A stretch of DNA of 58,817 bases from an uncultured Candidatus Saccharibacteria bacterium (GTDB lineage: Bacteria > Patescibacteriota > Saccharimonadia > CAILAD01 > BJGX01). The stretch spans positions 1 to 58,817 of the forward strand of contig CAYZYH010000006.1 of assembly GCA_964481235.1 (NCBI GenBank), in the 5' to 3' direction. The first letter of the stretch is position 1, and each line of letters starts with the position of its first letter. Under the pieces are notes generated by a model. It saw only the letters and a list, made by a program, of their open reading frames with translations, was not told the origin of the DNA and ran no database searches. Below are positions 8,901-54,769 of the stretch, piece by piece. The translations under genes and the position numbers were made by a program.

Positions 8901-10019
8901 ATGAAAAAAGTTCTTATCTTAACTACTAGCTATGGGCAGGGCCATATAGCTACTGCAAAAGCCATAGAAGAGGGTTTGCAACGACAATCTAAAACCCCCA
9001 TAGATATTGAGATAGTAGACTTTACTGAAACAATTAGTAGTTTGCTCAACAAAACCTCCAAAAAAATGTATGAGGATACATCTAAATATGCTCCTTTGTT
9101 ATACAAATTCTTTTTCGATTCCACCGACTTCCCCTTACCTTTTATAGCTCTAAATAGTATTAACTACTACCTAAGTCGAGAAAAAATACTCAATCTTTTT
9201 CACTCTAAAGACCCTGACTTAATAATTTGTAATTCACCACACTGGCAATACATTGCCTCGCTAGCTCGTGAAAAAGATTTTCAAAATGTTCCTTTGGTAT
9301 CAGTTATTACCGACTCTATTACTATCCATGCTTCTTGGACGATTGGCGATAGTGACTACTATATTGCTCCAAACCAAGAAACTTCTCACTCTCTACAGAT
9401 CTTAGGTGTGCAGAAAGATCGAGTCAAAGTGTTGGGCTACCCAATAAGCCTAAGTTTTACTGATAAATCTTTTCACAAATCCAATTTCTTACAAAGTGTT
9501 GGTCTAAGCTCTGGTAAAAAAATAATTCTTTCATTGGTAACAGGTATGCGCTATAGTTCTGCAAGCAAAACCCTAAAGCAACTTCAGCAAACATTGCCCG
9601 ATACTCAGATAGTAGCTATCACCGGCAGAGATGAGCCCTTATATAACAAGCTTAAAACCAACTTTGGGCCAACCATAAAGCTAATAGGTTGGACAGAAAA
9701 GATGCCACAATTTATTCTTGCTAGCGATCTTGTAATTACTAAGGCCGGCGGCTCAACTGTCATGGAGTGCTTAGGGGCAATTAAACCCGTTATTATATGT
9801 AAGATTATACCTGGCCAAGAAGAAGGTAATGCCGAGTATATTACTAAACACCACCTAGGAATTGTTGCGCTAGAACCCGAGATGATTGCTCATGCAGCAC
9901 ACAAAATACTAGACAATATGCCTAGTTACTGTAAAAGCCTTAATAAGGTCGCTATACCCCAGGCTAGCCTATCTATTGCAAGCTTTTTATTAGATTTGAT
10001 AGAGAACAATCAGTCTTGA
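8901..10019 (+). CDS. MGDG-synthase/UgtP-like diacylglycerol glycosyltransferase (GT28 family)
   Basis: 372 aa. N-terminus KVLILTTSYGQGHIATAKAIEE is typical of the MGDG synthase N-domain. The C-terminal GT28 motif is present (ITKAGGSTVMECL...PGQEEGNAEY). Confidence 0.7.
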   Translation: MKKVLILTTSYGQGHIATAKAIEEGLQRQSKTPIDIEIVDFTETISSLLNKTSKKMYEDTSKYAPLLYKFFFDSTDFPLPFIALNSINYYLSREKILNLFHSKDPDLIICNSPHWQYIASLAREKDFQNVPLVSVITDSITIHASWTIGDSDYYIAPNQETSHSLQILGVQKDRVKVLGYPISLSFTDKSFHKSNFLQSVGLSSGKKIILSLVTGMRYSSASKTLKQLQQTLPDTQIVAITGRDEPLYNKLKTNFGPTIKLIGWTEKMPQFILASDLVITKAGGSTVMECLGAIKPVIICKIIPGQEEGNAEYITKHHLGIVALEPEMIAHAAHKILDNMPSYCKSLNKVAIPQASLSIASFLLDLIENNQS

Positions 10020-11221
10020 GCGTATTGCAAAACACACTTGGCAATATTTTTGGCAGCGTCTACGTGTTGTTGACGAATCTTCTCGTATTTAGGACCACCA
10101 ATTTGTACCACTCCGTCAAGAATGTCTTGTACTGCTATGACCGCCAGAGCATTTGTGGACGCCCAAATACCGGCCTTGTTTTCTACCACATAAAGCAAGT
10201 TACCCTCTTCTTGTCCAGGTAAAAAATCAAAAAGAACCACTGGTAGACGGCTTACTATGCCTTCTACGATAGTTCCTGGGCCAGCCTTGGTGAGTAATAC
10301 ATCGGCGCCACGCATCATGGTTGGTATATCGTCTCTAAACTCATAGATATTGACTGGTTTTTGAAATTTTCTGGCTTTGAGAGTTCGGTACAAGCTTTTG
10401 TTGCGCCCAGCAATGATCGCCATATGAACATTTTGCTCCATTTTGTCGATTTTTCTTGATAACGAATTTATCTTGCCCATACCATCTCCACCAGCCATTA
10501 TTAGTAAGGTAGGTAGGTCGGCAGGCCACCCAAGCTTAGTCTTGGCAGTTTGTTTGGTTAGTTTTACTTTACTATAATCTCCCGACACTGGCTGTCCAAT
10601 TACTTTTAGGCGAGAGGATGGCACGCCAAAACCCCTAGCTCGTACATAGCTTTCCTGGCTAGGAACTATTATTAAGTCGGCTCGCTTATCAAACCACATA
10701 GGGTGTCCTGTAACCAAGTCAGTTACCACTGTAATAAATGGTATTTTACGCTCATAGGTCTTAAGTGTAGAAAGTATTGGGTTTACTCCAAAATGGCAAG
10801 ACACTATGAGGTCTGGGGCGAAATGGTCTAGTAATTGTCTAAACTCTTTTTTATATGGCATACCCATAGCCTCTAAGGCAAACTGAGCCCGTTTGGTACC
10901 TTCGGTAAGTTTAAAAATTGTCCCCCAGGCTGATTTTAGCTTGGTAACCCCAGAGTACATCTTGGGTATATCCCTAATTGGACGAGGTGCATTTTCCATA
11001 AAATCGTGATGTATTATCTCAAGCTTGTCAGTGTGTTTTTCTAGTTCACTAATAATCGCCAGTGCAGCTGCTCTATGTCCTCCACCGGTTCTCGCCGAAA
11101 TTACCAACACACGTTTTTTATTCTTTACCATATATGCATACATTATCACACTTTTTGCACCAATAGGACAATACTGATACCATAAGAGGTATATATGTCT
11201 GCCTCTACCTCTAACCCCCAC
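10010..11221 (-). CDS. Second MGDG-synthase/UgtP-like glycosyltransferase (GT28), paralog of the previous gene
   Basis: RVLVISARTGGGHRAAALAI near the N-terminus and LTKAGPGTIVEG...LPGQEEGNLLYV near the C-terminus. The true start is probably the internal Met (MVKNKKRVLVIS, near 11131), because the annotated 5' end overlaps the divergent neighbour. Confidence 0.7.
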   Translation of the reverse strand: MGVRGRGRHIYLLWYQYCPIGAKSVIMYAYMVKNKKRVLVISARTGGGHRAAALAIISELEKHTDKLEIIHHDFMENAPRPIRDIPKMYSGVTKLKSAWGTIFKLTEGTKRAQFALEAMGMPYKKEFRQLLDHFAPDLIVSCHFGVNPILSTLKTYERKIPFITVVTDLVTGHPMWFDKRADLIIVPSQESYVRARGFGVPSSRLKVIGQPVSGDYSKVKLTKQTAKTKLGWPADLPTLLIMAGGDGMGKINSLSRKIDKMEQNVHMAIIAGRNKSLYRTLKARKFQKPVNIYEFRDDIPTMMRGADVLLTKAGPGTIVEGIVSRLPVVLFDFLPGQEEGNLLYVVENKAGIWASTNALAVIAVQDILDGVVQIGGPKYEKIRQQHVDAAKNIAKCVLQYAQD

Positions 11222-12235
11222 AAAAAAACTAACTCCACACCAAGAGAGTCAAGTGTCAACAGTCATAATCCTATGCATTCCCGCATTACCCCCGCACATA
11301 GGGGTATTAAGCTTAATGTAAAAGGTATTGAAACCAATATGCGTCGTGACTACCTACACGACAGCTTGGTAATTATTGCGCCAAATCGTGGTAATCGCCC
11401 TTATGATACCAAGGACACCGGGCATGTACTTATAGAGACTGCCTCTAGCCCAAGACTGGATCGGAACTTAGAAGTTTGTCAGCTCAAAAATAAGCGTGGA
11501 GGATGGTACGTAAAGGTAGTTGAAAATAAATACCCAAGTCTCACTCCAAATAATCCTCAGGCTTATGGTAAACAAGAAATTGTCATAGATACACCGCTAG
11601 CTAATACCCCTTTTGCTCGGCTTAGTGAAGAACAAATAAAAACAATTTTTGGGGTTTATCAGTCCCGCACAGCCAATCTTCTAGATCAAAACGGCATTGA
11701 GTATGTTTTAATATTTAGAAATGATGGTTATTCCGCAGGAGCTAGCCTAGCCCATGCACACAGTCAAATATTTGCCTTACCTATAATACCTCAAAAGTTT
11801 CTTCGTGAGTCTGAGCTTGCAGAAGCATACCAAAAAGAAAATAACCGCAATGCCTATGAAGATATTATTGACTATGAAAAGAAATCAAAATCTAGAGTAA
11901 TTGCTGAAGATGAACATTGGCTGGTATTTTGTCCTTACGCTAGCCAGTGGCCATTTGAGTTTTGGATGCTTCCAAAGCGACATTTTAGTCTATCTACAGA
12001 AATGAACAAACCAGAGGTTAACTCACTTGCTCGTCATCTCAAAAAGTACTTAAAGAAACTCAACCTGCATAAAATAAATCATAATATGTACCTTGAAAAT
12101 GGCGTGAGCAAAAATCACCGCTTCTGCCTTAAGGTCTGTGGTCGGTCAAACACCTGGGGTGGTTTTGAACTTGCAACAAGTATTGTAATAAATACTGTAC
12201 CGCCCGAATCAGCCGCGCAGTGGTACAGAGAATAG
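11195..12235 (+). CDS. Galactose-1-phosphate uridylyltransferase (GalT)-family HIT-like nucleotidyltransferase
   Basis: Carries the H-x-H-x-Q active-site motif (HAHSQIF), and its two-half organisation is reminiscent of GalT/ADP-glucose phosphorylase. The start may be a downstream Met. Confidence 0.6.
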   Translation: MSASTSNPHKKTNSTPRESSVNSHNPMHSRITPAHRGIKLNVKGIETNMRRDYLHDSLVIIAPNRGNRPYDTKDTGHVLIETASSPRLDRNLEVCQLKNKRGGWYVKVVENKYPSLTPNNPQAYGKQEIVIDTPLANTPFARLSEEQIKTIFGVYQSRTANLLDQNGIEYVLIFRNDGYSAGASLAHAHSQIFALPIIPQKFLRESELAEAYQKENNRNAYEDIIDYEKKSKSRVIAEDEHWLVFCPYASQWPFEFWMLPKRHFSLSTEMNKPEVNSLARHLKKYLKKLNLHKINHNMYLENGVSKNHRFCLKVCGRSNTWGGFELATSIVINTVPPESAAQWYRE

Positions 12236-12321: not shown

Positions 12322-13839
12322 ATGTTAGCAAATATTCAAGCAATAAGTCATGTAGGTCTAGATAGTCAACTAATTGAGGTAGAGGCCGATATGCATAACG
12401 GTCTGCCAGCGTTTATCATTGTTGGTCTCGCAAATAAGGCAGTAGATGAAGCCAAAGAGCGAGTACGGGCGGCTCTAAAAAACTCAAGACTCCACCTTCC
12501 GCCCAGGCGCATCACACTAAATCTAGCACCCGCTGACCTACCAAAAAACGGTTCTGGGTTTGATCTTGCAATGGCTGTTGGCCTACTTGTGGCAAGTGGT
12601 CAGGTTAAACCAATTCCCTCAGATTGCTTGTTTTATGGCGAGCTAGGCCTCGACGGCACCACCCGTAACGTTTCTGGTGCATTGGCTACAGCTCAAGCAG
12701 CCACAAGGTTTGGTATTAAGAAGCTATTTATATCTGATAGTGTCGCTGCTCAAGCAGCAATGATTGATTCACTAGTCGTTTATCCAGTAAAAGATCTATT
12801 CGAACTCTACCAGCATCTTTTGGGTGAAAAGCTTATTACACCATACAAGCGTCCTAGTTTTACGGGCAGTACAAAGCTTTCAGATGTTGATTTTGCAGAG
12901 ATTTACGGTCAAGAACAAGCTAAGCGCGCAATTGAAATTGCTGCAGCAGGTAACCACAATATAATCATGTCTGGGCCACCAGGGTCAGGTAAAACCCTTC
13001 TAGCCAAAGCTTTAGCCGGGCTATTGCCGGCTCCAAGTTATAGCGAGATACTTGAAATCACTCGAATACATAGCCTGTCTGGTTCGGCTCAAGCAGAGGT
13101 CGTTACAACTCGACCCTTTCGAAATCCTCACCACACTGCAAGCAGTATTGCCTTGATAGGTGGTGGACAGTGGCCTAGACCAGGAGAAATTAGTCTTGCG
13201 CACCGCGGTGTACTTTTCTTAGACGAGTTACCTGAGTTTCCTAGGAGCGTTTTAGAGGTTTTAAGACAACCGCTTGAGGATGGTACTGTTACTATAAGTA
13301 GAGCATCTGCATCCTACCAATTTCCAGCCCAATTTCTACTTGTTGCCGCACAAAACCCATGCCCTTGTGGTTATGCAGGTGACAATACTCAAGTATGCAG
13401 CTGTTCACCCGCCCAACTTAACCGCTACCAAACCAGAGTGTCTGGGCCTTTACTTGATAGAATTGACCTCCAGGTACACGTAGACAGGATTGATAGCAGT
13501 AAGTTGCTAAAAGGTAAGTCGTCGGAGTCTTCAGACGAAGTTGCTAAGAGAGTTTATGGAGCCAGGTTGGTTCAAACAAAACGCTTTAAGAATATAGGCT
13601 TGAGAGCGAATAATGAAATGGGCAACTCTCAAATTCGTGAATTTTGCAATCTTAAACCAGAGGTAGAAAATCTCGCCAAAATAGCTCTTAATAAAATGAA
13701 CCTAAGTGCACGTAGTTATATGCGGGTATTAAAAGTAGCTAGAACAATAGCCGATTTAGACAGGAGTAGTGAGATAAATACTAGCCACTTTACCGAGGCG
13801 TTACAATATAGAATATCTAGATCTGCAGTATCAATTTAG
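12322..13839 (+). CDS. comM: YifB/ComM family Mg-chelatase-like AAA+ ATPase
   Basis: 505 aa with an N-terminal Lon-like domain, Walker A (MSGPPGSGKT) and Walker B (VLFLDELPEF), plus the characteristic C-terminal region. Confidence 0.85.
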   Translation: MLANIQAISHVGLDSQLIEVEADMHNGLPAFIIVGLANKAVDEAKERVRAALKNSRLHLPPRRITLNLAPADLPKNGSGFDLAMAVGLLVASGQVKPIPSDCLFYGELGLDGTTRNVSGALATAQAATRFGIKKLFISDSVAAQAAMIDSLVVYPVKDLFELYQHLLGEKLITPYKRPSFTGSTKLSDVDFAEIYGQEQAKRAIEIAAAGNHNIIMSGPPGSGKTLLAKALAGLLPAPSYSEILEITRIHSLSGSAQAEVVTTRPFRNPHHTASSIALIGGGQWPRPGEISLAHRGVLFLDELPEFPRSVLEVLRQPLEDGTVTISRASASYQFPAQFLLVAAQNPCPCGYAGDNTQVCSCSPAQLNRYQTRVSGPLLDRIDLQVHVDRIDSSKLLKGKSSESSDEVAKRVYGARLVQTKRFKNIGLRANNEMGNSQIREFCNLKPEVENLAKIALNKMNLSARSYMRVLKVARTIADLDRSSEINTSHFTEALQYRISRSAVSI

Positions 13840-15105: not shown

Positions 15106-15918
15106 ATGTACGCTCTATTTTTCGACAAAAGCGCATTAGATTCTCAATCACTACTTAGCTTTGTTAGTGAATGGAAAGTATCAAAAAATATTGCTGGAGA
15201 AGATTTTAAAGTACATAACGTTGAAGAAATTACTACAATATGTCGTGAATATGGAAAAAAATACAGCACTGTAATTGCCGTTGGTGCAGATAGGACCTTT
15301 GATTCATTAGTTGGACAGTCAAAACATCTCAACCCAGACGTTGTGTTTGGCTATATACCGAGTAATGTTAATGTATTAGCAAAAAGAATTGGAATAAAAG
15401 ATTACAAAGAAGCTTGTAATGTAATATCCCAAAGAAAGATTATTGAACTTACAGCTTTATCTTGTAGCCAGAACTACTTTCTATTCACTCTCGTAATTAA
15501 TGTAGAACAAAATGAACCCAAAAATCAAAAAAAGGTGTTCATAGAAATAGATAATACTTTAGAGATTAGTCTCAATACTGACAGTATTCTTTTGCATAAC
15601 CGAAACCAAGAGTTACTACCCCACGATACAGCCATACTCTTAGAGGCCTTTAACAAACCAGTAGTGCCAAATCAAGACCGAAACTTACTCAAAATTGCTT
15701 CATCTCGCTTAAAGAGCGGTGGGGCTACGGTTAAACAGCTACAGTTAAGGGTGCCTGGTGATAAGATAAGAATTGAATCGTCTACTCCACTGTCAGACAC
15801 TTATTCTAGCTCTATAAAGCAGTCACTTAGAATAGGGTTTAGTAAAAAACCTACTCGTTTAATAGTGAAAAAGGGTCAGGAATTGCAAGCTATCATGTCT
15901 CCAGGGTTGATTTCTTAA
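15106..15918 (+). CDS. DAGK/YegS-like lipid-kinase-fold protein with a degenerate GGDGT motif
   Basis: 270 aa. AVGADRTFDSLVGQ sits where GGDGTxxxVxNG would be. Overall length and layout resemble the DAGK_cat family. Low confidence. Confidence 0.35.
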   Translation: MYALFFDKSALDSQSLLSFVSEWKVSKNIAGEDFKVHNVEEITTICREYGKKYSTVIAVGADRTFDSLVGQSKHLNPDVVFGYIPSNVNVLAKRIGIKDYKEACNVISQRKIIELTALSCSQNYFLFTLVINVEQNEPKNQKKVFIEIDNTLEISLNTDSILLHNRNQELLPHDTAILLEAFNKPVVPNQDRNLLKIASSRLKSGGATVKQLQLRVPGDKIRIESSTPLSDTYSSSIKQSLRIGFSKKPTRLIVKKGQELQAIMSPGLIS

Positions 15919-48606: not shown

Positions 48607-49005
48607 CACGCTCCCCTTTCGAGTTTCTCTACTAAGACATACCAACAGGTTAGGTGAATTAGATAACACCTATGCCCTACACGGTCTAACACTACCTCTA
48701 CCGCATCTGCAATATCAAAATCTACACCACAACCATTGCAGGCACTCCCTACAGCCCTAGGGTGGCATTCTAGCTTAAATACACCTTCACTCTGTAGCAC
48801 TTTGAGCATCTTGGTCTCCTTTGTAAGAAGAAATGTAGTAGTCTGGCCTACTGTAGCCATGGCTAACCATATACCAACACAAAGCAATAGATGCCGGCCC
48901 AAAAACAACCCTGGGCTCTATATCGTTCGCATCCCAAGCTTCTAGCGCTTCTATAGAGTTTTTGCATATAACATACAGATTGGTCTCACACATAATGGGC
49001 TCCAA
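48606..49005 (-). pseudogene. Two overlapping small Cys-containing ORFs (72 and 100 aa) in different frames; possibly one frameshifted gene
   Basis: ORFs 48787..49005 and 48606..48908 overlap by ~120 nt in different frames within a GC-rich stretch. ECHPRAVGSACNGCG suggests a metal-binding site. Which frame is real cannot be resolved by eye. Confidence 0.25.
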
Positions 49006-49295
49006 AAATCGATTGTCAAGGTTCTCTCGGTAGCTTTAGTACTAAAAAACTGCCCGAGAAGGCAGTTTTTTAGTTAATATTAGCAATAATTACAGATACA
49101 GGCTTAAAAACTCCCTTCTAAAGCAGTGTTTTTAGCAAAATATTGAAATGACGACCAAGTAGTATGTTTTTTGTTCAGTAACATTATTTTTCTCTGTTAT
49201 ATTAATAAGCATAACAAAATCAAAAATTATTGTCAAAAAAGATACTCTACAGGTTGTTATACCAGTTACAAATGATAAAAAAGTGTTAAAAACTA

Positions 49296-49324
49296 TTGAC
49301 TTTTAGTAAATAGTTTGCTATAAT
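49296..49324 (+). promoter_or_regulatory. Consensus sigma70 promoter (TTGACT - 17 nt - TATAAT)
   Basis: An exact -35 and -10 hexamer pair with optimal spacing. No protein-coding gene follows on this strand. Confidence 0.65.
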
Positions 49325-49330
49325 ACCCCT

Positions 49331-49792
49331 AATGCTTAGTTAATAGGCAGAGAACCTCAAAAAAAACCAAGAAACTGCAAAAATTGAGAGGAGGTGCACG
49401 TGTTCGTCATTCAGAACCGTGCTACCGAGTTTTTAGATAGTTTATAGGAGCAGTTGGAGCCTCTACTAGAGCCGTTAATCTTAATTTTAAGATAATGGCT
49501 TGAAGACGCTTTTACCACCAGGCAAATCCGCCAGACCAATACATATTTGGGCTTTCGAGTCCAGGCGAGGGTCAACCTTCGTAGTGCAAGCATATGTAGA
49601 GGTGAAGGAGTTAGCGACAAAAATGTCGCTAAGGTATTAGTGCTGTAGACCAGCCCTCAGCTGTTCCGCCACTATGCAGTACATAGGATAATTAGCAATG
49701 CTAGTTATCCAACTTGTCGGCTTTTGTAGCCTTGCGAGCGTTGCTCCTTGGCTATGGGCCGGTAAACCCCACCTGATTGGTGGGGTTTTTTC
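49331..49792 (+). ncRNA. Candidate orphan transcript (~460 nt): tiny SD-preceded ORF plus a long structured region, ending at an intrinsic terminator
   Basis: The promoter above is followed by GAGAGGAGG, then 5 nt to a GTG opening a 15-codon ORF (MFVIQNRATEFLDSL, 49400-49447), then ~340 nt of GC-balanced, hairpin-rich sequence (e.g. TAGCGACAAAAATGTCGCTA), then a terminator. No substantial ORF lies on the plus strand. Confidence 0.35.
49766..49792 (+). terminator. Rho-independent terminator
   Basis: CCCCACCTGATTGGTGGGG hairpin followed by TTTTTTC. Confidence 0.75.
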
Positions 49793-49816
49793 TATTCAAA
49801 TTATGATTTTATATAG

Positions 49817-50233
49817 CTATTTAGAGTCTAGATTATAGGTCATACCACAAACAGAACCGAGGTCTATATCGGACTGCATTGCCTGCTTATAAAGATCTTC
49901 TGAGGCTACCAGCGCTAGATTGGTGCTAGAGCCGCCGATACTATCTAGGTAAAAACGTTCGCCAGACACATTGTCGAACAACTCTATGGCTTGAAGAGGC
50001 CATTGCTTGGCTACAGAGTAGGCGTGGCGTAGCTCGGCCTCGGTAATTAGCCAAGCAGTTTTTTGGTGGCTCTTAAGGCTAGCAAATGTCTCTGCTACAT
50101 TGTTGGTAATATAATAATTATTGCTTTGCAGTGCACTCTTGAGGTTGTCTAGGCTACTGTCATTTTTGTAAATAATAAGACCAGCTTCACGACTTTGAGA
50201 TTGAGTTGTTAAATAAGTATGTAAATCTTGCAT
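49817..50233 (-). CDS. Hypothetical protein (138 aa), last gene of the MoxR-VWA cluster
   Basis: ORF 24 nt downstream of the VWA gene on the same strand. No recognisable motifs. Confidence 0.45.
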   Translation of the reverse strand: MQDLHTYLTTQSQSREAGLIIYKNDSSLDNLKSALQSNNYYITNNVAETFASLKSHQKTAWLITEAELRHAYSVAKQWPLQAIELFDNVSGERFYLDSIGGSSTNLALVASEDLYKQAMQSDIDLGSVCGMTYNLDSK

Positions 50234-50257
50234 ATTAGTTATATATTATCATAAAGC

Positions 50258-52297
50258 TTAAGCCTGCTCTATAACCCTCCTCAGTACTTCTACAAGTGCG
50301 ATGGGTAGCTCAGTTACATCTTGTATTATAGAATAGTCTGGGTAGTATTCGGCTACAGACTCTGACTGTATGCCAATACTAGCTAGTTTTTGGTTGGTAT
50401 TGTTTATTATGGTATCTACTACCCTATGTAGATTGTACTCTGGCCCATTATGCCTATGGCTTTCGGCTGGTTGTCCATCAGATAGAATTACTACAATTTT
50501 TTCGGTGCCAGGTTGCTGAGCCAAGCGTTCGGAAGTTTCGGTGAGTGCCCAACCATCGTCGTTGTATCCAGCTCTACCCGGACTCCAAGATTCTTCAATC
50601 ATACCGGGCATAATCTCGCGACTTGCCCTACCGAATTGATCATTAAAACCCTTATATTTATAAAGTTCAATGTTAAAACCGTATACTTCAAAACGAATAT
50701 TTAGCTTACTTAGTACCTCAGAAAACACAATAGCACTTTTTAACGCCTCTTGTACTCTATCACCTCTCATGGACCCCGATAAATCTATTAGCAGACTAAT
50801 AGTATAGTCTTTTTGGGTAGGCAACTCTCGCCTCTCCCAGGCTTTGCTCTGTACAGCCGAAACACCTTTGGCTTTCTCAGATATACGCTTGCCTATGTTT
50901 ATGCGACGACCAGCACGATAACCGCTTTTGTAGCCATGCGAAGATCTGGCAATAAACAAGTTATTGAGATCGTTATATAGGCTATCTATGAGTGGTTTTA
51001 GCTCTTGGTAGAGTTCATTGTACTGCTCTAGCTGTATTTCTTGCTCAGTCTTTTCTGGCTCTTCTGGCTCATTGTCGGAGTCACCGTGAGCCGGATCGCC
51101 ATTTATTTCTACCTGGCCTGGTTCGCCATCTGTAGCCATTTGAATACTTAGCTTGGCCTCTAGTTGGTCGGTAATTTGTTTATCGAGATCAGCTAGAGCC
51201 TCTGTCGCCTCTTGATGTAATTGTTCTTTAACATCTTCTGGCAAGTTGGCTATAAACATTTGCAATGCTTGTAGCTGCTCTGCAGATAGGTCTGAAAGTT
51301 TGATGGGCTGGTAATAACCTTGTTCTTTGGCAATTTCGGCGGCTTGCTGTAGCATTTCTTGCATATCACTTGGTAGTTCGTTAAAGCCTTCGGGGGTATT
51401 GCCGTCTACAAGATCTTTTATCATTTTCTGTAATTGTTTGGCGGCGGCGGCATTGGCCATATCGATATCGACAAGTTTTTTAAATTCTGGCCAAATTTTG
51501 TCGGTAATAATAGCTCCACTCGCCTTGGCGTAATTATCTACCAAAGTGTTTGATCTGTCGGCTTCGTCTTTGGTAGGATATGTCCACCACATATCTTGCA
51601 GGTATGGCGCTACTCTTGCAATATAGTCTTTTATTTCTTGGGGCAGTTCTGGGGCTACCTGCATTGGTTGCCTTTGTCTATCTTGATACCAAAGACTTAT
51701 GTGTTCAAAACTAGCAAGGTCGTGCAGAGGCATAAAACCAAGTTGGTCTTGAGCCTTCTCTAGCATTTCTTGGCGCTGAGCAAGTTGTTGTTCATAGTAA
51801 ATATGCATACCTTCGTCTAACAGTCTGAAATTATCAGACAAAAAGTTATTGACCCTAGGGTCCTCTAGACCACCAAATAACACATTGCCACCTGGCTGGT
51901 GACGCATTTCTTGCACTGGCTCTACTAAACGCGATATTCGTCTGTGACTAGCTTCGTGGCCAATACTCCAGCGATTTTCTTGAGCGGGGCGTTCTAGTAG
52001 ATCTTGTAAACCTACCGCAACGTAATTTTCATTCATACTCCAATACCAATTACGGCCCGGCGCTAGTATTACCGGCATATCGAAGTCTTTGCCTATAAAA
52101 CTACTTATAACACTTAAACTTCGTAATCGTTCTTGTACTACTCTGCGTTGAGATAAGGGTAGGCTAGCCAACATAGCCTCAGAGCGTTCTTTGTCGGTTT
52201 GGTAAGTCAATACAGGGTCTAGGGCGTGACCATCTCGTACTGCACTAGCAGGCTGTGGGTCGGCTTTGGCCGCGTATACTCTTTCTGTTTCACTCAA
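50258..52297 (-). CDS. VWA-domain protein with an N-terminal HExxH metallopeptidase-like domain and an acidic coiled-coil linker (DUF2201_N/VWA-like architecture)
   Basis: HEASH with a downstream Glu (GGLEDP) ~30 aa on, suggesting a gluzincin site near residue 115. A long Glu/Gln/Asp-rich helical region follows. A C-terminal VWA with a MIDAS motif DLSGSM is present, and later SDGQP. It sits immediately downstream of the MoxR-type ATPase. Confidence 0.75.
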   Translation of the reverse strand: MSETERVYAAKADPQPASAVRDGHALDPVLTYQTDKERSEAMLASLPLSQRRVVQERLRSLSVISSFIGKDFDMPVILAPGRNWYWSMNENYVAVGLQDLLERPAQENRWSIGHEASHRRISRLVEPVQEMRHQPGGNVLFGGLEDPRVNNFLSDNFRLLDEGMHIYYEQQLAQRQEMLEKAQDQLGFMPLHDLASFEHISLWYQDRQRQPMQVAPELPQEIKDYIARVAPYLQDMWWTYPTKDEADRSNTLVDNYAKASGAIITDKIWPEFKKLVDIDMANAAAAKQLQKMIKDLVDGNTPEGFNELPSDMQEMLQQAAEIAKEQGYYQPIKLSDLSAEQLQALQMFIANLPEDVKEQLHQEATEALADLDKQITDQLEAKLSIQMATDGEPGQVEINGDPAHGDSDNEPEEPEKTEQEIQLEQYNELYQELKPLIDSLYNDLNNLFIARSSHGYKSGYRAGRRINIGKRISEKAKGVSAVQSKAWERRELPTQKDYTISLLIDLSGSMRGDRVQEALKSAIVFSEVLSKLNIRFEVYGFNIELYKYKGFNDQFGRASREIMPGMIEESWSPGRAGYNDDGWALTETSERLAQQPGTEKIVVILSDGQPAESHRHNGPEYNLHRVVDTIINNTNQKLASIGIQSESVAEYYPDYSIIQDVTELPIALVEVLRRVIEQA

Positions 52298-52330
52298 AAC
52301 AACTATTACCTATCATTATCTAACACCTCT

Positions 52331-54769
52331 CTATTTGTATCCTCTATTAGGTCGGGGGGGCTTGGGTTTCTTTTTTTGACTTGCGGTAGGACCCCAGCCT
52401 GGTGAGTGAGTAGGTGGCGGAGGTGGGTTTGGAGTAGGTGGCCTTGGTGGAGGTTCATCTTCAGTTTCTCCTTCGCCATAATAATCTTCCCAGTCAGTTT
52501 CAGAATCATCTGTTGCTGACGAGGTGGATGGTGGTGGCGATATTGGCGAACCAGCCGGCGCAAAAGCCGAACCAGCAATTGGGGTGCCAATAGGTGATGA
52601 TGATCCGGATGATACACCGCTAGCGGGTGAGGAGGTAGTACCTAAACTTTCTACAGCACTTAGAGCCTGCAACACCCAGTTATTACCTATAGACATGGCG
52701 TAGTAATCTGGTGTACTAGCAAAGTGCTCTTCGCGCTCTTGCCAGGCTCTGAGTGAAAAACAACCACTCATACTCTTAGCAAATGTAGCATTAGAAACAC
52801 GCCCTTTGAGTACTTCTCTTATTTCCCAAGCCCAGCCGGTATCTAAACCAGCCAAAGATATAGCAAGTGCCTCTTCATAGCCATCTTCTATAAACTGATT
52901 TCTTACCTCGCTAGCTACATTAGAGTCGTCGCCAGAAATTGCCCAAGCTATAGCCATGGTCTTTTCGTTTTCAGTAAGACCAAATAAATTAGCATCTCGT
53001 TCTAGTATATCCAACTTTACTGCTGGGGTGTTTGGGTATTTAATATAGCGCATGCCCAGCGCCGTAGCACTCGGTTTTTTACCAGCTTCTTTTAAAAACA
53101 TCATTAAACCAACAAGTTCTGGTGTCTGGCTCAGACCAGCAAGAGAAGTAATAATAGCATTTATGTCTTGTTCATCAAAAGAGTCTATCTTTGATTTTAT
53201 TTCTACTATAAACAGGTCTTCACCACCATAGTGTGCTATCGCATCGTGCCCAACTAGGCCGTTAAACCCGGCGGAGTGTTTACCGGTAAGTAGTAGTGAA
53301 TTAATTTCTGATTCTGCGAAGGTACCCATAACTCCTGCCAATGATTTTCCAAAGGCTTTAGTATTGCCAGGCTTATCCTTGGCAACCTGTCGCATGGGCC
53401 TAGCTGTGAGAGAGTTGTTACCAGCAAGGGCGGTAAGTATTAGTGGGTCTTTGGCTGGCCCAGCTGGCCCAATAAATACTTGCAACTCTGCGAGGCGCCT
53501 GGCAATATAGTCGGGGTCACTTAAGGTTTCTGGGTCGTTGGGTAACTCTGCTGTGCTACCACTCACACCGCGCCGACGAGAGTCGCCAGTATCTTCTACC
53601 TTAATAGTGTGTATTTTGCCTATCATTTCCTGACGCTCTGTTGGATCGGCCAATTTATTGGCATAGTAATACTCGAGCGCTCTATGCACAGTAGCATTGA
53701 GATCGCCATTATAAAAATGACAAATAAACTCGGCTACTCTATTTATTTCTTCACGGTCGTCATAACTAATTTTTTGAGGTTGGTCGCGACCTATCTCGCT
53801 TGCTTTGGCTTGGCTTTTTACCATATAGTGAAAAATACGAATTTGCTCAGCCATATCAGCCATACCTGGTATAGCACCTAGTTCTTCACGAGTAAGAGTG
53901 CGTTCTCCGCTGTGTAAATATTTACTCTCATCTGGCTCGGCAACCTCGGTGCCTTTTTTGAGCCCAAAGGTAGCATCTACATAACCCTCTACCGACTCTT
54001 CAGGTAGCTCTTCGGGTAGTTTAATATACACCCATCTTCTAAACTGGGCAGGGTCTAAAGGGTGACGCTCTGAATATTCACTACCACTACGACTAGGGGC
54101 ATTACCAAGCGCAACAATACTAAGATTATCACGCACTACCTTAAGACGTTTAGAAGCATCTTCGGTTACACTAACCATGCCAGAGTCTTCGTAGGCATCG
54201 ATAACTTCGTGTAGACGTATAAGAATATCTGGAGTGGCGGCATTGAACTCGTCTACCATTAAGAGTACTTTGTGGCCTTTTATGGCCTCTTCTATAGCTG
54301 CTGTAACCGGACCATTGGCAAAAACATACTCAGGGTCTTCGGTAGAATGACGGTCTGGGTTAGGTGCATACTGACCCATAAGCGATGAGGTATCGTCACT
54401 ACCCTTCATATTGATGTAGTGAACCGACCAACCAAGTTCGTGGGCCATTTTACGTACTGCCGAACTCTTACCTACTGACGTACCAGCTTCTACAAATACA
54501 GGCTGATGCAAAGCAAATGCCGTAGCCAAGTCGCGTTGCAATTCTTGACTAAACTCATCTTCTACATAGCCCTCTTTCTTAAGCGGAACCTGCTCTTCTT
54601 CACCAGTACCTTTGGGTAAGCGCACTCCCAAATATTCTACATATTCGGGCTCAGCAACAGCTGCCAACTCTACTAGGTGTGGAATATCTACAGACAATGG
54701 TTCACTACCTACTGTCGTAGGCTCATCTGCTAGATTTGACCCACTATCACTATGTGCTGGTTCTGGCAC
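52331..54769 (-). CDS. MoxR/AAA_5-type AAA+ ATPase, unusually large (812 aa), with a long C-terminal extension and a Pro-rich tail
   Basis: Walker A EAGTSVGKSS and Walker B VLLMVDEFNAA in the first third. Then ~450 aa of unassigned sequence ending in PPPRPPTPNPPPPPTHSPGWGPTASQKKKPKPPRPN. Confidence 0.75.
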   Translation of the reverse strand: MPEPAHSDSGSNLADEPTTVGSEPLSVDIPHLVELAAVAEPEYVEYLGVRLPKGTGEEEQVPLKKEGYVEDEFSQELQRDLATAFALHQPVFVEAGTSVGKSSAVRKMAHELGWSVHYINMKGSDDTSSLMGQYAPNPDRHSTEDPEYVFANGPVTAAIEEAIKGHKVLLMVDEFNAATPDILIRLHEVIDAYEDSGMVSVTEDASKRLKVVRDNLSIVALGNAPSRSGSEYSERHPLDPAQFRRWVYIKLPEELPEESVEGYVDATFGLKKGTEVAEPDESKYLHSGERTLTREELGAIPGMADMAEQIRIFHYMVKSQAKASEIGRDQPQKISYDDREEINRVAEFICHFYNGDLNATVHRALEYYYANKLADPTERQEMIGKIHTIKVEDTGDSRRRGVSGSTAELPNDPETLSDPDYIARRLAELQVFIGPAGPAKDPLILTALAGNNSLTARPMRQVAKDKPGNTKAFGKSLAGVMGTFAESEINSLLLTGKHSAGFNGLVGHDAIAHYGGEDLFIVEIKSKIDSFDEQDINAIITSLAGLSQTPELVGLMMFLKEAGKKPSATALGMRYIKYPNTPAVKLDILERDANLFGLTENEKTMAIAWAISGDDSNVASEVRNQFIEDGYEEALAISLAGLDTGWAWEIREVLKGRVSNATFAKSMSGCFSLRAWQEREEHFASTPDYYAMSIGNNWVLQALSAVESLGTTSSPASGVSSGSSSPIGTPIAGSAFAPAGSPISPPPSTSSATDDSETDWEDYYGEGETEDEPPPRPPTPNPPPPPTHSPGWGPTASQKKKPKPPRPNRGYK

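Follow-up and report, generated by a model that had tools for sequence, protein, structure and literature searches.

Large structured RNAs such as OLE, ROOL, GOLLD and raiA are hundreds of nucleotides long, non-coding and restricted in range, with a conserved multi-branched fold and a promoter and terminator of their own. The RNA predicted here lies beside a gene trio encoding a MoxR-like ATPase, a vWA protein and a small third protein, in a 58.8-kb stretch of DNA from an uncultured Saccharibacteria bacterium (hereafter, the window). It resembles these classes in all the above respects, whereas it differs from them in matching no Rfam 15 model even at E<=10, in having a sequence that evolves much faster (it is unalignable at 40% identity of the neighbouring proteins) and in having its fixed place beside the MoxR-vWA module rather than beside tRNA or phage genes.

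In Ro60-Y RNA ribonucleoproteins, a vWA-domain protein is genetically linked to the gene of a structured ncRNA. The present locus differs from these in that Pfam finds no TROVE domain, the RNA is four times longer and there is no match to the Rfam Y_RNA model. The ternary vWA-MoxR-VMAP conflict systems are often coupled to DGRs, and the study describing them names no RNA component (Kaur et al., 2020, PMC7159879). The module studied here shares with them the trio of MoxR AAA+ protein, vWA protein and small third protein, as well as the coupling to DGRs in sister Patescibacteria lineages; in the described systems, however, the diversified domain is on the vWA protein, whereas in the sister lineages it is the C-terminus of the AAA_5 protein. 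Our module is at most a candidate member of this family: none of its proteins was matched by a PADLOC model, and no VMAP domain was recognised by Pfam in the ~140-aa protein. The module proteins weakly resemble CobS/CobT, and a single-sequence structure prediction of the 138-aa protein (pLDDT 60) was too poor for use.

The STAB-SD mechanism is documented (PMC4113751), and hbs provides a precedent for a strong SD acting as a stabilizer (PMC5737220). Like the mRNAs of cry3A in B. thuringiensis and hbs in B. subtilis, both Gram-positive bacteria, the window RNA would carry, near its predicted 5' end, a long purine tract of SD type that could pair with the canonical 3' end of 16S rRNA. STAB-SD elements belong to very strongly expressed transcripts, and the window RNA has a strong promoter, as judged from sequence alone. 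Its start codon is predicted to be structurally hidden, which is consistent with binding without productive translation. The known examples nevertheless stabilize protein-coding mRNAs, whereas the body of the window RNA is non-coding and the SD is located ~55 nt in. The cry3A STAB-SD sequence is reportedly GAAAGGAGG.

A last group for comparison comprises the dual-function RNAs S. aureus RNAIII/hld, B. subtilis SR1/SR1P and E. coli SgrS/SgrT, in which, as here, a long structured RNA that is transcribed from a promoter of its own up to its own terminator includes a short ORF preceded by a good SD. Their peptides are conserved, whereas the substitution pattern in the window RNA and the unrelated mini-ORFs of its counterparts argue against a conserved peptide.

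Transcription unit and predicted fold

The locus is very probably an independent gene for a highly structured ncRNA of ~465 nt, transcribed from the + strand between ~49331 and 49794 (Table 1). A re-reading of the sequence placed the promoter, the SD-like motif, the 15-codon ORF and the terminator exactly where the original prediction had put them. The promoter is of the extended -10 type (TTGACT-17-TGcTATAAT) with a score of 11/12, and transcription is predicted to start near A49331. It had been described as the strongest in the window, which is nearly right: the 58.8-kb window contains three 11/12 sites, so that two others have the same score, and only the one at this locus combines a 17-nt spacer with the extended -10 TG. 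It had also been stated that no gene of 60 aa or more follows and that the final gene of the MoxR-VWA cluster points towards the unit. We indeed found no + strand ORF of at least 60 aa between 49006 and 49816 (the longest ORF anywhere in the region, 69 aa, is on the - strand), and the gene map and the Pfam domain matches bear out the convergence, the terminator being back-to-back with the stop codon of the 138-aa gene at 49817.

Table 1. Features of the RNA locus and of the adjoining module (positions in the window; L003 is a close relative).
Feature	Position	Strand	Basis or remarks
Sigma-70-type promoter	49296-49324	+	TTGACT 49296-49301, 17-nt spacer ending TGc, TATAAT 49319-49324
5' hairpin 1 (GCUUA-GUUAA-UAGGC)	49334-49348	+	RNAalifold and MFE; stem invariant in L003
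SD-like element GAGAGGAGG	49386-49394	+	Sequence; proposed 30S-binding / 5'-stabilizer element
Hairpin 2, 12 bp	49393-49426	+	Predicted; last SD bases and GUG start in stem; wholly invariant between window and L003
15-codon mini-ORF GTG..TAG, MFVIQNRATEFLDSL-stop	49400-49447	+	
Closed multi-branched core domain	49447-49667	+	Closing helix GGAGCAG/CUGUUCC; at least 5 internal hairpins
Two 3' hairpins	49686-49710, 49718-49761	+	Helices 15, 16: 3 double and 4 single pair-preserving changes
Intrinsic terminator	49764-49794	+	Stem 49764-49788 (10 bp, 6 GC), then U6
Putatively linked module	49817-54769	-	Pfam; three genes
~140-aa protein (138 aa)	49817-50233	-	
vWA protein	50258-52297	-	N-terminal HExxH motif; CobT_C/VWA C-terminus
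MoxR-like AAA_5 ATPase	52331-54769	-	Pfam

The region after the mini-ORF (about 345 nt) had been called hairpin-rich, and the folding energies agree with this description. The MFE of the predicted transcript was -177.1 kcal/mol, versus -126.5 +/- 5.6 kcal/mol for dinucleotide shuffles (z = -9.1). The - strand folded at -147.6 kcal/mol (z = -4.8), so that the + strand was better by about 30 kcal/mol, an advantage that is expected if the G.U pairs belong to the + strand. When 298 segments of 400 nt covering both strands of the whole 58.8 kb were scanned with 8 shuffles each, which makes the individual z-values noisy, the region ranked 1/298 and the RNase P RNA came below it. The internal hairpins of the core domain include UUAGCGAC-AAAAA-GUCGCUAA. 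Core helices 5-14 were 100% paired in both the window and L003, with compensatory double changes in helices 11 and 12, and the 3' hairpins were the most variable yet structurally conserved part of the RNA (67-77% identity between the two sequences).

The RNA could not be assigned to a known family. The original prediction had reported no signatures of tmRNA, SRP, 6S or RNase P, in agreement with Rfam 15, which at gathering scores gave no match in 49000-49900 and at E<=10 only terminator-driven or sub-threshold noise, while locating RNase P, tmRNA and four tRNAs in other parts of the window. The Rfam 15 families that the window RNA does not match also include OLE, ROOL, GOLLD, raiA, HEARO, riboswitches, leaders and self-cleaving ribozymes, and the RNAs that we describe below for the loci L004 and L010 fall into no Rfam family either. 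We found nothing relevant in the literature on ncRNAs of Saccharibacteria and Patescibacteria.

Several other identities were considered and rejected. No ORF of the region had a Pfam match and most indels relative to L003 break the frame, against a degraded protein gene; the 69-aa - strand ORF had no homologue among 5.8 billion proteins. We found no tRNA-like element in the region, no tandem or direct repeats of the kind expected for an array-type guide RNA (CRISPR, TIGR), and no match in phage genomes that would indicate phage-derived DNA; a scan of viral contigs matched nothing.

Conservation in relatives and position beside the MoxR-vWA module

The sole alignable relative, L003 (MAG contig CAZKFZ010000004.1, vWA protein 81% identical), carries the whole unit, with an RNA 81% identical overall. 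Both promoter hexamers and the spacer length are identical to those of the window, and the terminator has a conserved stem and a changed loop. The 5' 170 nt of the RNA (including 49380-49500) are 92-97% identical between the two sequences, versus 64-75% for the third codon positions of four flanking genes, which we used as a neutral yardstick. A 46-nt block with the SD and hairpin 2 is invariant, and the identity is 62-77% in 49540-49620 and 49660-49760.

The original prediction had called for a check of conservation and covariation in relatives. Pairing is kept in the parts that vary: among 122 predicted pairs, 15 differ between the window and L003 and all 15 stay paired (6 by double and 9 by single changes), whereas in control structures slid by 1-3 columns merely 38-47% of cells pair. 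These pair-preserving changes favour the predicted fold in a supportive rather than statistically decisive manner, since each subtype provides two alignable sequences (2+2(+1) in all) and the structure was derived from the same sequences. The indels between the two RNAs measure 1, 2, 4, 7 and 10 nt, versus one of 3 nt; being mostly not multiples of three, they exclude a conserved reading frame. Judged by this comparison, purifying selection acts on the RNA region, which shows compensatory changes and whose strong promoter is intact. A conserved, independent and non-coding + strand transcription unit, running from a strong promoter to an intrinsic terminator, is thus strongly supported, and the SD in combination with the promoter, fold, terminator and conservation exceeds what chance would produce, whereas the SD-like motif alone, or the SD with a start codon alone, does not.

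Searches for further sequences of this type returned little. With nhmmer and blastn against all fetched loci, the window RNA recovered L003 and identical Logan contigs alone (identical contigs occur in the metagenome runs SRR27197497 and SRR16481186); a covariance model of the most conserved window-type segment recovered only the window and L003; the window-type 5' block had no match in metagenomes; and a search of genome contigs with the vWA protein returned L003 alone. Homologues of the vWA protein are themselves rare (22 in the database), and after L003 the next ones are ~40% identical.

We recovered positional counterparts of the RNA in these distant relatives. L004/L005, from one 651-kb contig, and L007, a second distant locus, were considered. 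The gene order is shared by L004 and L007 (bPH - SurA-like PPIase - AAA_5 - vWA - 141aa), and in both a unit convergent with the last gene comprises a TTGACA-17-TATAAT promoter equivalent to that of the window, an SD-like motif in a hairpin loop near the RNA 5' end (GAGAGGAGG in L004, GAGAGGGGG in L007), an ORF-free structured RNA of ~390 nt and a terminator. These two RNAs can be aligned with each other: none of their 96 predicted pairs is broken, 3 show double changes, and one internal hairpin has kept its shape with almost completely different stems. A metagenome search with the L004-type core pattern gave one chance match, in the unrelated contig L016. Between the window-type and L004-type RNAs, no similarity was detected by nhmmer, blastn, k-mers (none longer than 6 shared) or covariance model, so that their orthology is argued from slot, orientation and anatomy. 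On either side of the slot, synteny is kept between the window and L004/L007, in vertically inherited surroundings (bPH-SurA ... tRNA-128aa-555aa), and slot and orientation have been kept despite only 40% identity of the vWA and 65% of the SurA-like protein. The genes on the other side of the RNA differ (VKOR in L004; a small gene, 232aa and MTase in the window).

The original suggestion of a structured ncRNA is well supported by the fold z-score, the strand asymmetry, the conserved promoter and terminator, the compensatory changes, the lack of protein signal and the positional orthologue. An attenuator that lost its gene had been listed as another candidate; it finds no support, the next gene being convergent and no same-strand gene lying downstream in L003, L004 or L007.

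That the RNA goes with the MoxR-vWA module is a point that the original prediction had not raised. Three different gene orders retain the trio, and RNA and module occur together in the window, L003, L004/L005 and L007 (five loci). By comparison, relatives of the neighbouring SurA-like protein number in the hundreds at 50-89% identity, so that sampling of the lineage is good and the rare element is the module. In one of these relatives, L021, whose SurA-like protein (82% identical) is closer than that of L004 (65%), neither the three module genes (AAA_5, vWA, 138 aa) nor the RNA is present: the genes run bPH - SurA - small 26-aa gene - 213aa - MTase - tRNA, and nhmmer detects no trace of the RNA. 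L021 is the one module-less relative inspected, so that this joint absence could be due to a single deletion of neighbouring genes.

Two loci with other arrangements complete the picture. In L010 the module reads vWA-115aa-AAA_5. Directly after its AAA_5 gene come a 12/12 promoter, an ORF-free RNA of 290 nt (z = -7.5) and a terminator, a unit that is oriented in tandem with the module and not convergent; this RNA has no detectable sequence or covariance-model similarity to the window-type or L004-type. L008 has no promoter-RNA-terminator unit of the window layout beside its module; ~540 nt downstream there is a strongly structured ORF-free stretch of another kind, with a long inverted repeat and two direct repeats.

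The co-occurrence of the RNA with the trio was thus observed in five loci, and from it we infer a functional link. The RNA could alternatively be a stand-alone regulatory or housekeeping ncRNA that merely adjoins the MoxR-vWA genes, its absence from L021 reflecting one deletion or insertion. The vertical inheritance of the surrounding block would agree with this, as would the lack of any standout pairing between the RNA and the start regions of the module genes, where duplex energies were at the window median (the duplex output was poorly behaved and is weak evidence). A second orphan structured RNA of ~440 nt, at 128-590, has no relation to any module, and such RNAs may be common here. Against this alternative stand the constant position and orientation of the RNA beside the module over deep divergence, with differing genes on its other side, the orphan RNA beside the rearranged module of L010 and the lack of any RNA trace in the module-less L021; we regard it as possible but on the unlikely side.

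The convergent arrangement itself, with a back-to-back terminator hairpin common to the RNA and the operon and the same disposition in L004 and L007, suggested that the unit could regulate the module operon by transcription interference or by read-through antisense RNA, its structure being secondary. We consider this highly improbable: the clean terminator should end most transcripts 22 nt before the 138-aa gene, interference does not need ~345 nt of conserved covarying structure, and the RNA of L010 is in tandem.

In further sister lineages (L006, L012-14, L017, L020), a DGR with bAvd, RT and TR is found at this site beside the module, and the 3' end of the AAA_5 gene serves as its variable repeat. 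The L010 RNA occupies exactly the DGR position. As positive controls, mismatches between TR and VR fell at TR adenines alone, in 20/20 cases in L017 and 15/15 in L006. Three RT and three Avd proteins, used as tblastn queries, had no match in the window, L003, L004, L007 or L010; the loci of the orphan RNAs contain no TR/VR-like repeat, and the window RNA is not repeated anywhere in the window. A role of the orphan RNAs as DGR templates was accordingly rejected. These DGRs, and the location of the L010 RNA, would be the main reasons to see in our locus the relic of a DGR (its template-repeat/spacer RNA region), or else of a protein gene or of a leader-attenuator without partner. Such a relic is scarcely probable, given that the five loci searched by tblastn contain neither RT nor Avd, that the window-type AAA_5 protein is devoid of the DGR-target C-terminal domain, that there is neither protein similarity nor, in any relative, a downstream gene, and that a relic would not keep purifying selection, compensatory changes and an intact strong promoter.

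SD-like element and 15-codon mini-ORF

The element GAGAGGAGG is followed by 5 nt (TGCAC) and by GTG at 49400. Together with the following UG it forms GAGAGGAGGUG, 11 nt complementary (with one G.U) to the 3' end of 16S rRNA, CACCUCCUUUC, this pairing being scored on the canonical 16S 3' end as the 16S gene is outside the window. The element occurs once in the window, and 16/100 shuffles also contain one. By chance, a start codon is nearby at 28% of the non-gene GGAGG sites; the arrangement GGAGG, 5 nt, GTG is also a true translation start here, being that of the AAA_5 gene. The distance from the SD-like motif to the 5' end, itself predicted, is about 55 nt in the window type versus about 15 nt in the L004 type.

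The substitutions in the mini-ORF do not resemble those of a peptide gene. Three differences separate it from L003 (F>Y, L>I, L>F), none of them synonymous and all in codons 11-15. Codons 1-10, located in hairpin 2, are invariant at all three positions, when ~3 third-position changes would be expected at the neutral rate; the invariance even of third positions indicates a constraint at the level of the RNA rather than of the peptide. As a control, we used the 26-codon gene MLLNKKHTTWSSFQYFAKNTALEGSF (49104-49184, - strand), which is divergent and 200 nt upstream and which shows 4 synonymous changes and 1 conservative change (K>R) relative to L003; this ORF is also kept in the more distant L021 and is thus a real small gene. 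The mini-ORFs of L004 and L007 (MNNSTKFRLC and MNTKFRL) are shorter than MFVIQNRATEFLDSL and unrelated to it. Comparison of these sequences suggests that the mini-ORF is probably not a conserved peptide gene, whereas ribosome binding or initiation at the SD is plausible.

The original prediction had put forward a dual-function sRNA encoding a micropeptide, of which the structured RNA is supported and the peptide is not. In such a scenario, comparable to RNAIII/hld or SR1/SR1P, the 15-codon ORF would produce a functional micropeptide and the tail would be regulatory. The ideal SD, spacing and start codon, in the format of a real gene, speak for it, together with the recurrence of an SD followed by a start within 4-6 nt in the window, L004 and L007, and with the conservative nature of the three amino-acid changes. 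It is hard to reconcile with the absence of synonymous changes and the ten codons invariant at third positions where ~30% change is expected, with the unrelated 7-10-residue peptides of the positional orthologues, with the frequency at which start codons follow non-gene GGAGG sites by chance, and with a start codon buried in a predicted 12-bp stem. We hold this scenario to be improbable. The type-I-toxin-like peptide that had also been proposed finds no support, MFVIQNRATEFLDSL being short and not hydrophobic, with no transmembrane helix, and no overlapping antisense promoter or partner being found; the divergent unit upstream is the 26-codon gene, which is separate and conserved.

Proposed function and significance

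The reading that we prefer, with moderate confidence in it as a whole, is that of a lineage-restricted ncRNA in a fixed slot by the MoxR-vWA trio, with an SD that loads a ribosome and a body that acts with the module. By analogy with the stabilizer elements, the long SD match GAGAGGAGG would most likely capture a 30S subunit or an initiating ribosome, which could then shield the 5' end of the RNA from 5'-to-3' decay and so make the RNA abundant. If the SD captures a ribosome as a stabilizer, the mini-ORF would be incidental, or would serve merely as a ribosome-loading device. The folded body, that is the core and the 3' hairpins, would be the functional part, and may act on the vWA-MoxR module or together with it, in the role of scaffold, regulator or ligand.

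A more specific version, which we consider unlikely, would make the RNA a fourth component of the Patescibacteria vWA-MoxR system. It would be bound or remodelled by the ATPase/vWA machine, or be its sensing or specificity element, and would replace the DGR-diversified C-terminal sensor and the template RNA of the sister lineages.

The genomes of Saccharibacteria and Patescibacteria are tiny and gene-dense, so that an ORF-free stretch of 465 nt whose promoter and fold are the best of the 59 kb is unlikely to be idle. We propose the RNA as a candidate for a new class of structured RNAs, restricted to a few Saccharibacteria lineages and genetically tied to the MoxR-vWA trio; the case for the RNA itself is good, that for its function circumstantial, and the main weakness is how few sequences there are. 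Its rapid evolution, and the handful of metagenomic contigs from which it is known, set practical limits to its study.

If confirmed, it would add a new class of large structured RNAs to a phylum in which RNA biology has hardly been explored. The SD-type element heading an ncRNA would be a natural example that bears on RNA stabilization in these organisms. Confirmation would also provide the first hint of an RNA partner for MoxR-vWA modules, regarded in earlier proposals as conflict or chaperone systems, and if the RNA is an integral component of the module, this would be the first RNA-containing vWA-MoxR conflict or chaperone system.

Unannotated units in the window

The second orphan unit of the window (see the table) is ORF-free for ~440 nt and folds with an MFE of -178.7 kcal/mol (z = -6.75). 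It had no match in Rfam and no similarity to the window RNA, the structured ncRNA beside the MoxR(AAA_5)-vWA operon. The genome thus seems to have a second large structured RNA that is missing from the annotation. On the same strand, an identical TTTTACTTAT follows each of the intrinsic terminators at 1030..1010, 654..632 and 156..128 (3/3), and two of the three are followed by TTTTACTTATGCTTGCAA, in which the next promoter has its -35. Such a terminator-promoter junction is recurrent here.

Upstream of the window RNA, the divergent 26-codon gene MLLNKKHTTWSSFQYFAKNTALEGSF differs from L003, the only alignable relative, by four synonymous changes and one K>R replacement. L021, a relative lacking both the MoxR-vWA trio and the RNA, keeps a homologue (MLLNKRHTTWSSFQEEPKTAQEGSF, ~11168-11245). 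The gene probably encodes an unannotated small protein. The stretch in which it sits is the most conserved non-coding-looking part of the locus, with 95-100% identity to L003.

Coordinates of the features discussed
Feature	Locus	Position	Strand	Remark
Second orphan unit	window	about 128-590	-	
Its upstream terminator	window	654..632	-	
Its promoter-like element	window	619..591	-	TTGCAA-17-TATATT
Its final terminator	window	156..128	-	
26-codon gene	window	49104-49184	-	divergently transcribed
Its promoter	window	49236..49208	-	
Its bidirectional terminator	window	49041-49075		
ORF-free RNA unit	L010	10619-10945	+	directly 3' of AAA_5 gene
Extra promoter + terminator unit	L004	about 12975-13250	-	~250 nt
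ORF-free stretch	L008	8638-9162		525 nt; beside another module variant, 142aa-AAA_5-vWA-62aa-L21
DGR repeats	L017	7716-7825 / 9560-9669		
DGR repeats	L020	4272-4387 / 4781-4896		
DGR repeats	L006	14669-14787 / 15125-15243		
DGR repeats	L012	5791-5937 and 6880-7026 / 7404-7550		

Units and structured stretches beside the module in other loci

The unit of L010, another module-bearing locus, has a perfect promoter (TTGACA-16-TATAAT, 12/12) and a 290-nt RNA without ORF (MFE -127 kcal/mol, z -7.5), followed by a terminator. This RNA was without Rfam match, with neither a template/variable repeat (TR/VR) nor a reverse transcriptase (RT) nearby; its function may parallel that of the window RNA. The extra unit of L004, a distant relative, lies immediately upstream of the L004-type RNA on the same strand. 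Its fold z is about -4 to -5, and its product could be either a small RNA or a small protein. The same terminator occurs at the start of L007, also a distant relative. The L008 stretch, made up of a long inverted repeat and two direct repeats (caccacaNgagtatttccaNttttata), reaches extreme fold z values, about -10 to -11.5, whichever strand is folded.

Module proteins and diversity-generating retroelements

The vWA/CobT_C protein (50258-52297, - strand) carries an HExxH motif (IGHEASHRR) in an N-terminal region that Pfam did not recognize. The motif is conserved in 22/22 homologues, and this region may be a metallopeptidase-like domain to which the vWA domain is fused.

In Patescibacteria with the order vWA-140aa-AAA_5, a diversity-generating retroelement (DGR; bAvd + RT) comes next. 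These DGRs have as their variable repeat the 3' end of the MoxR-like AAA_5 gene. The mismatches are adenine-specific (20/20 in L017 and 15/15 in L006). An ATPase of the MoxR type whose C-terminal domain is hypermutated seems to be a DGR target architecture not described before.
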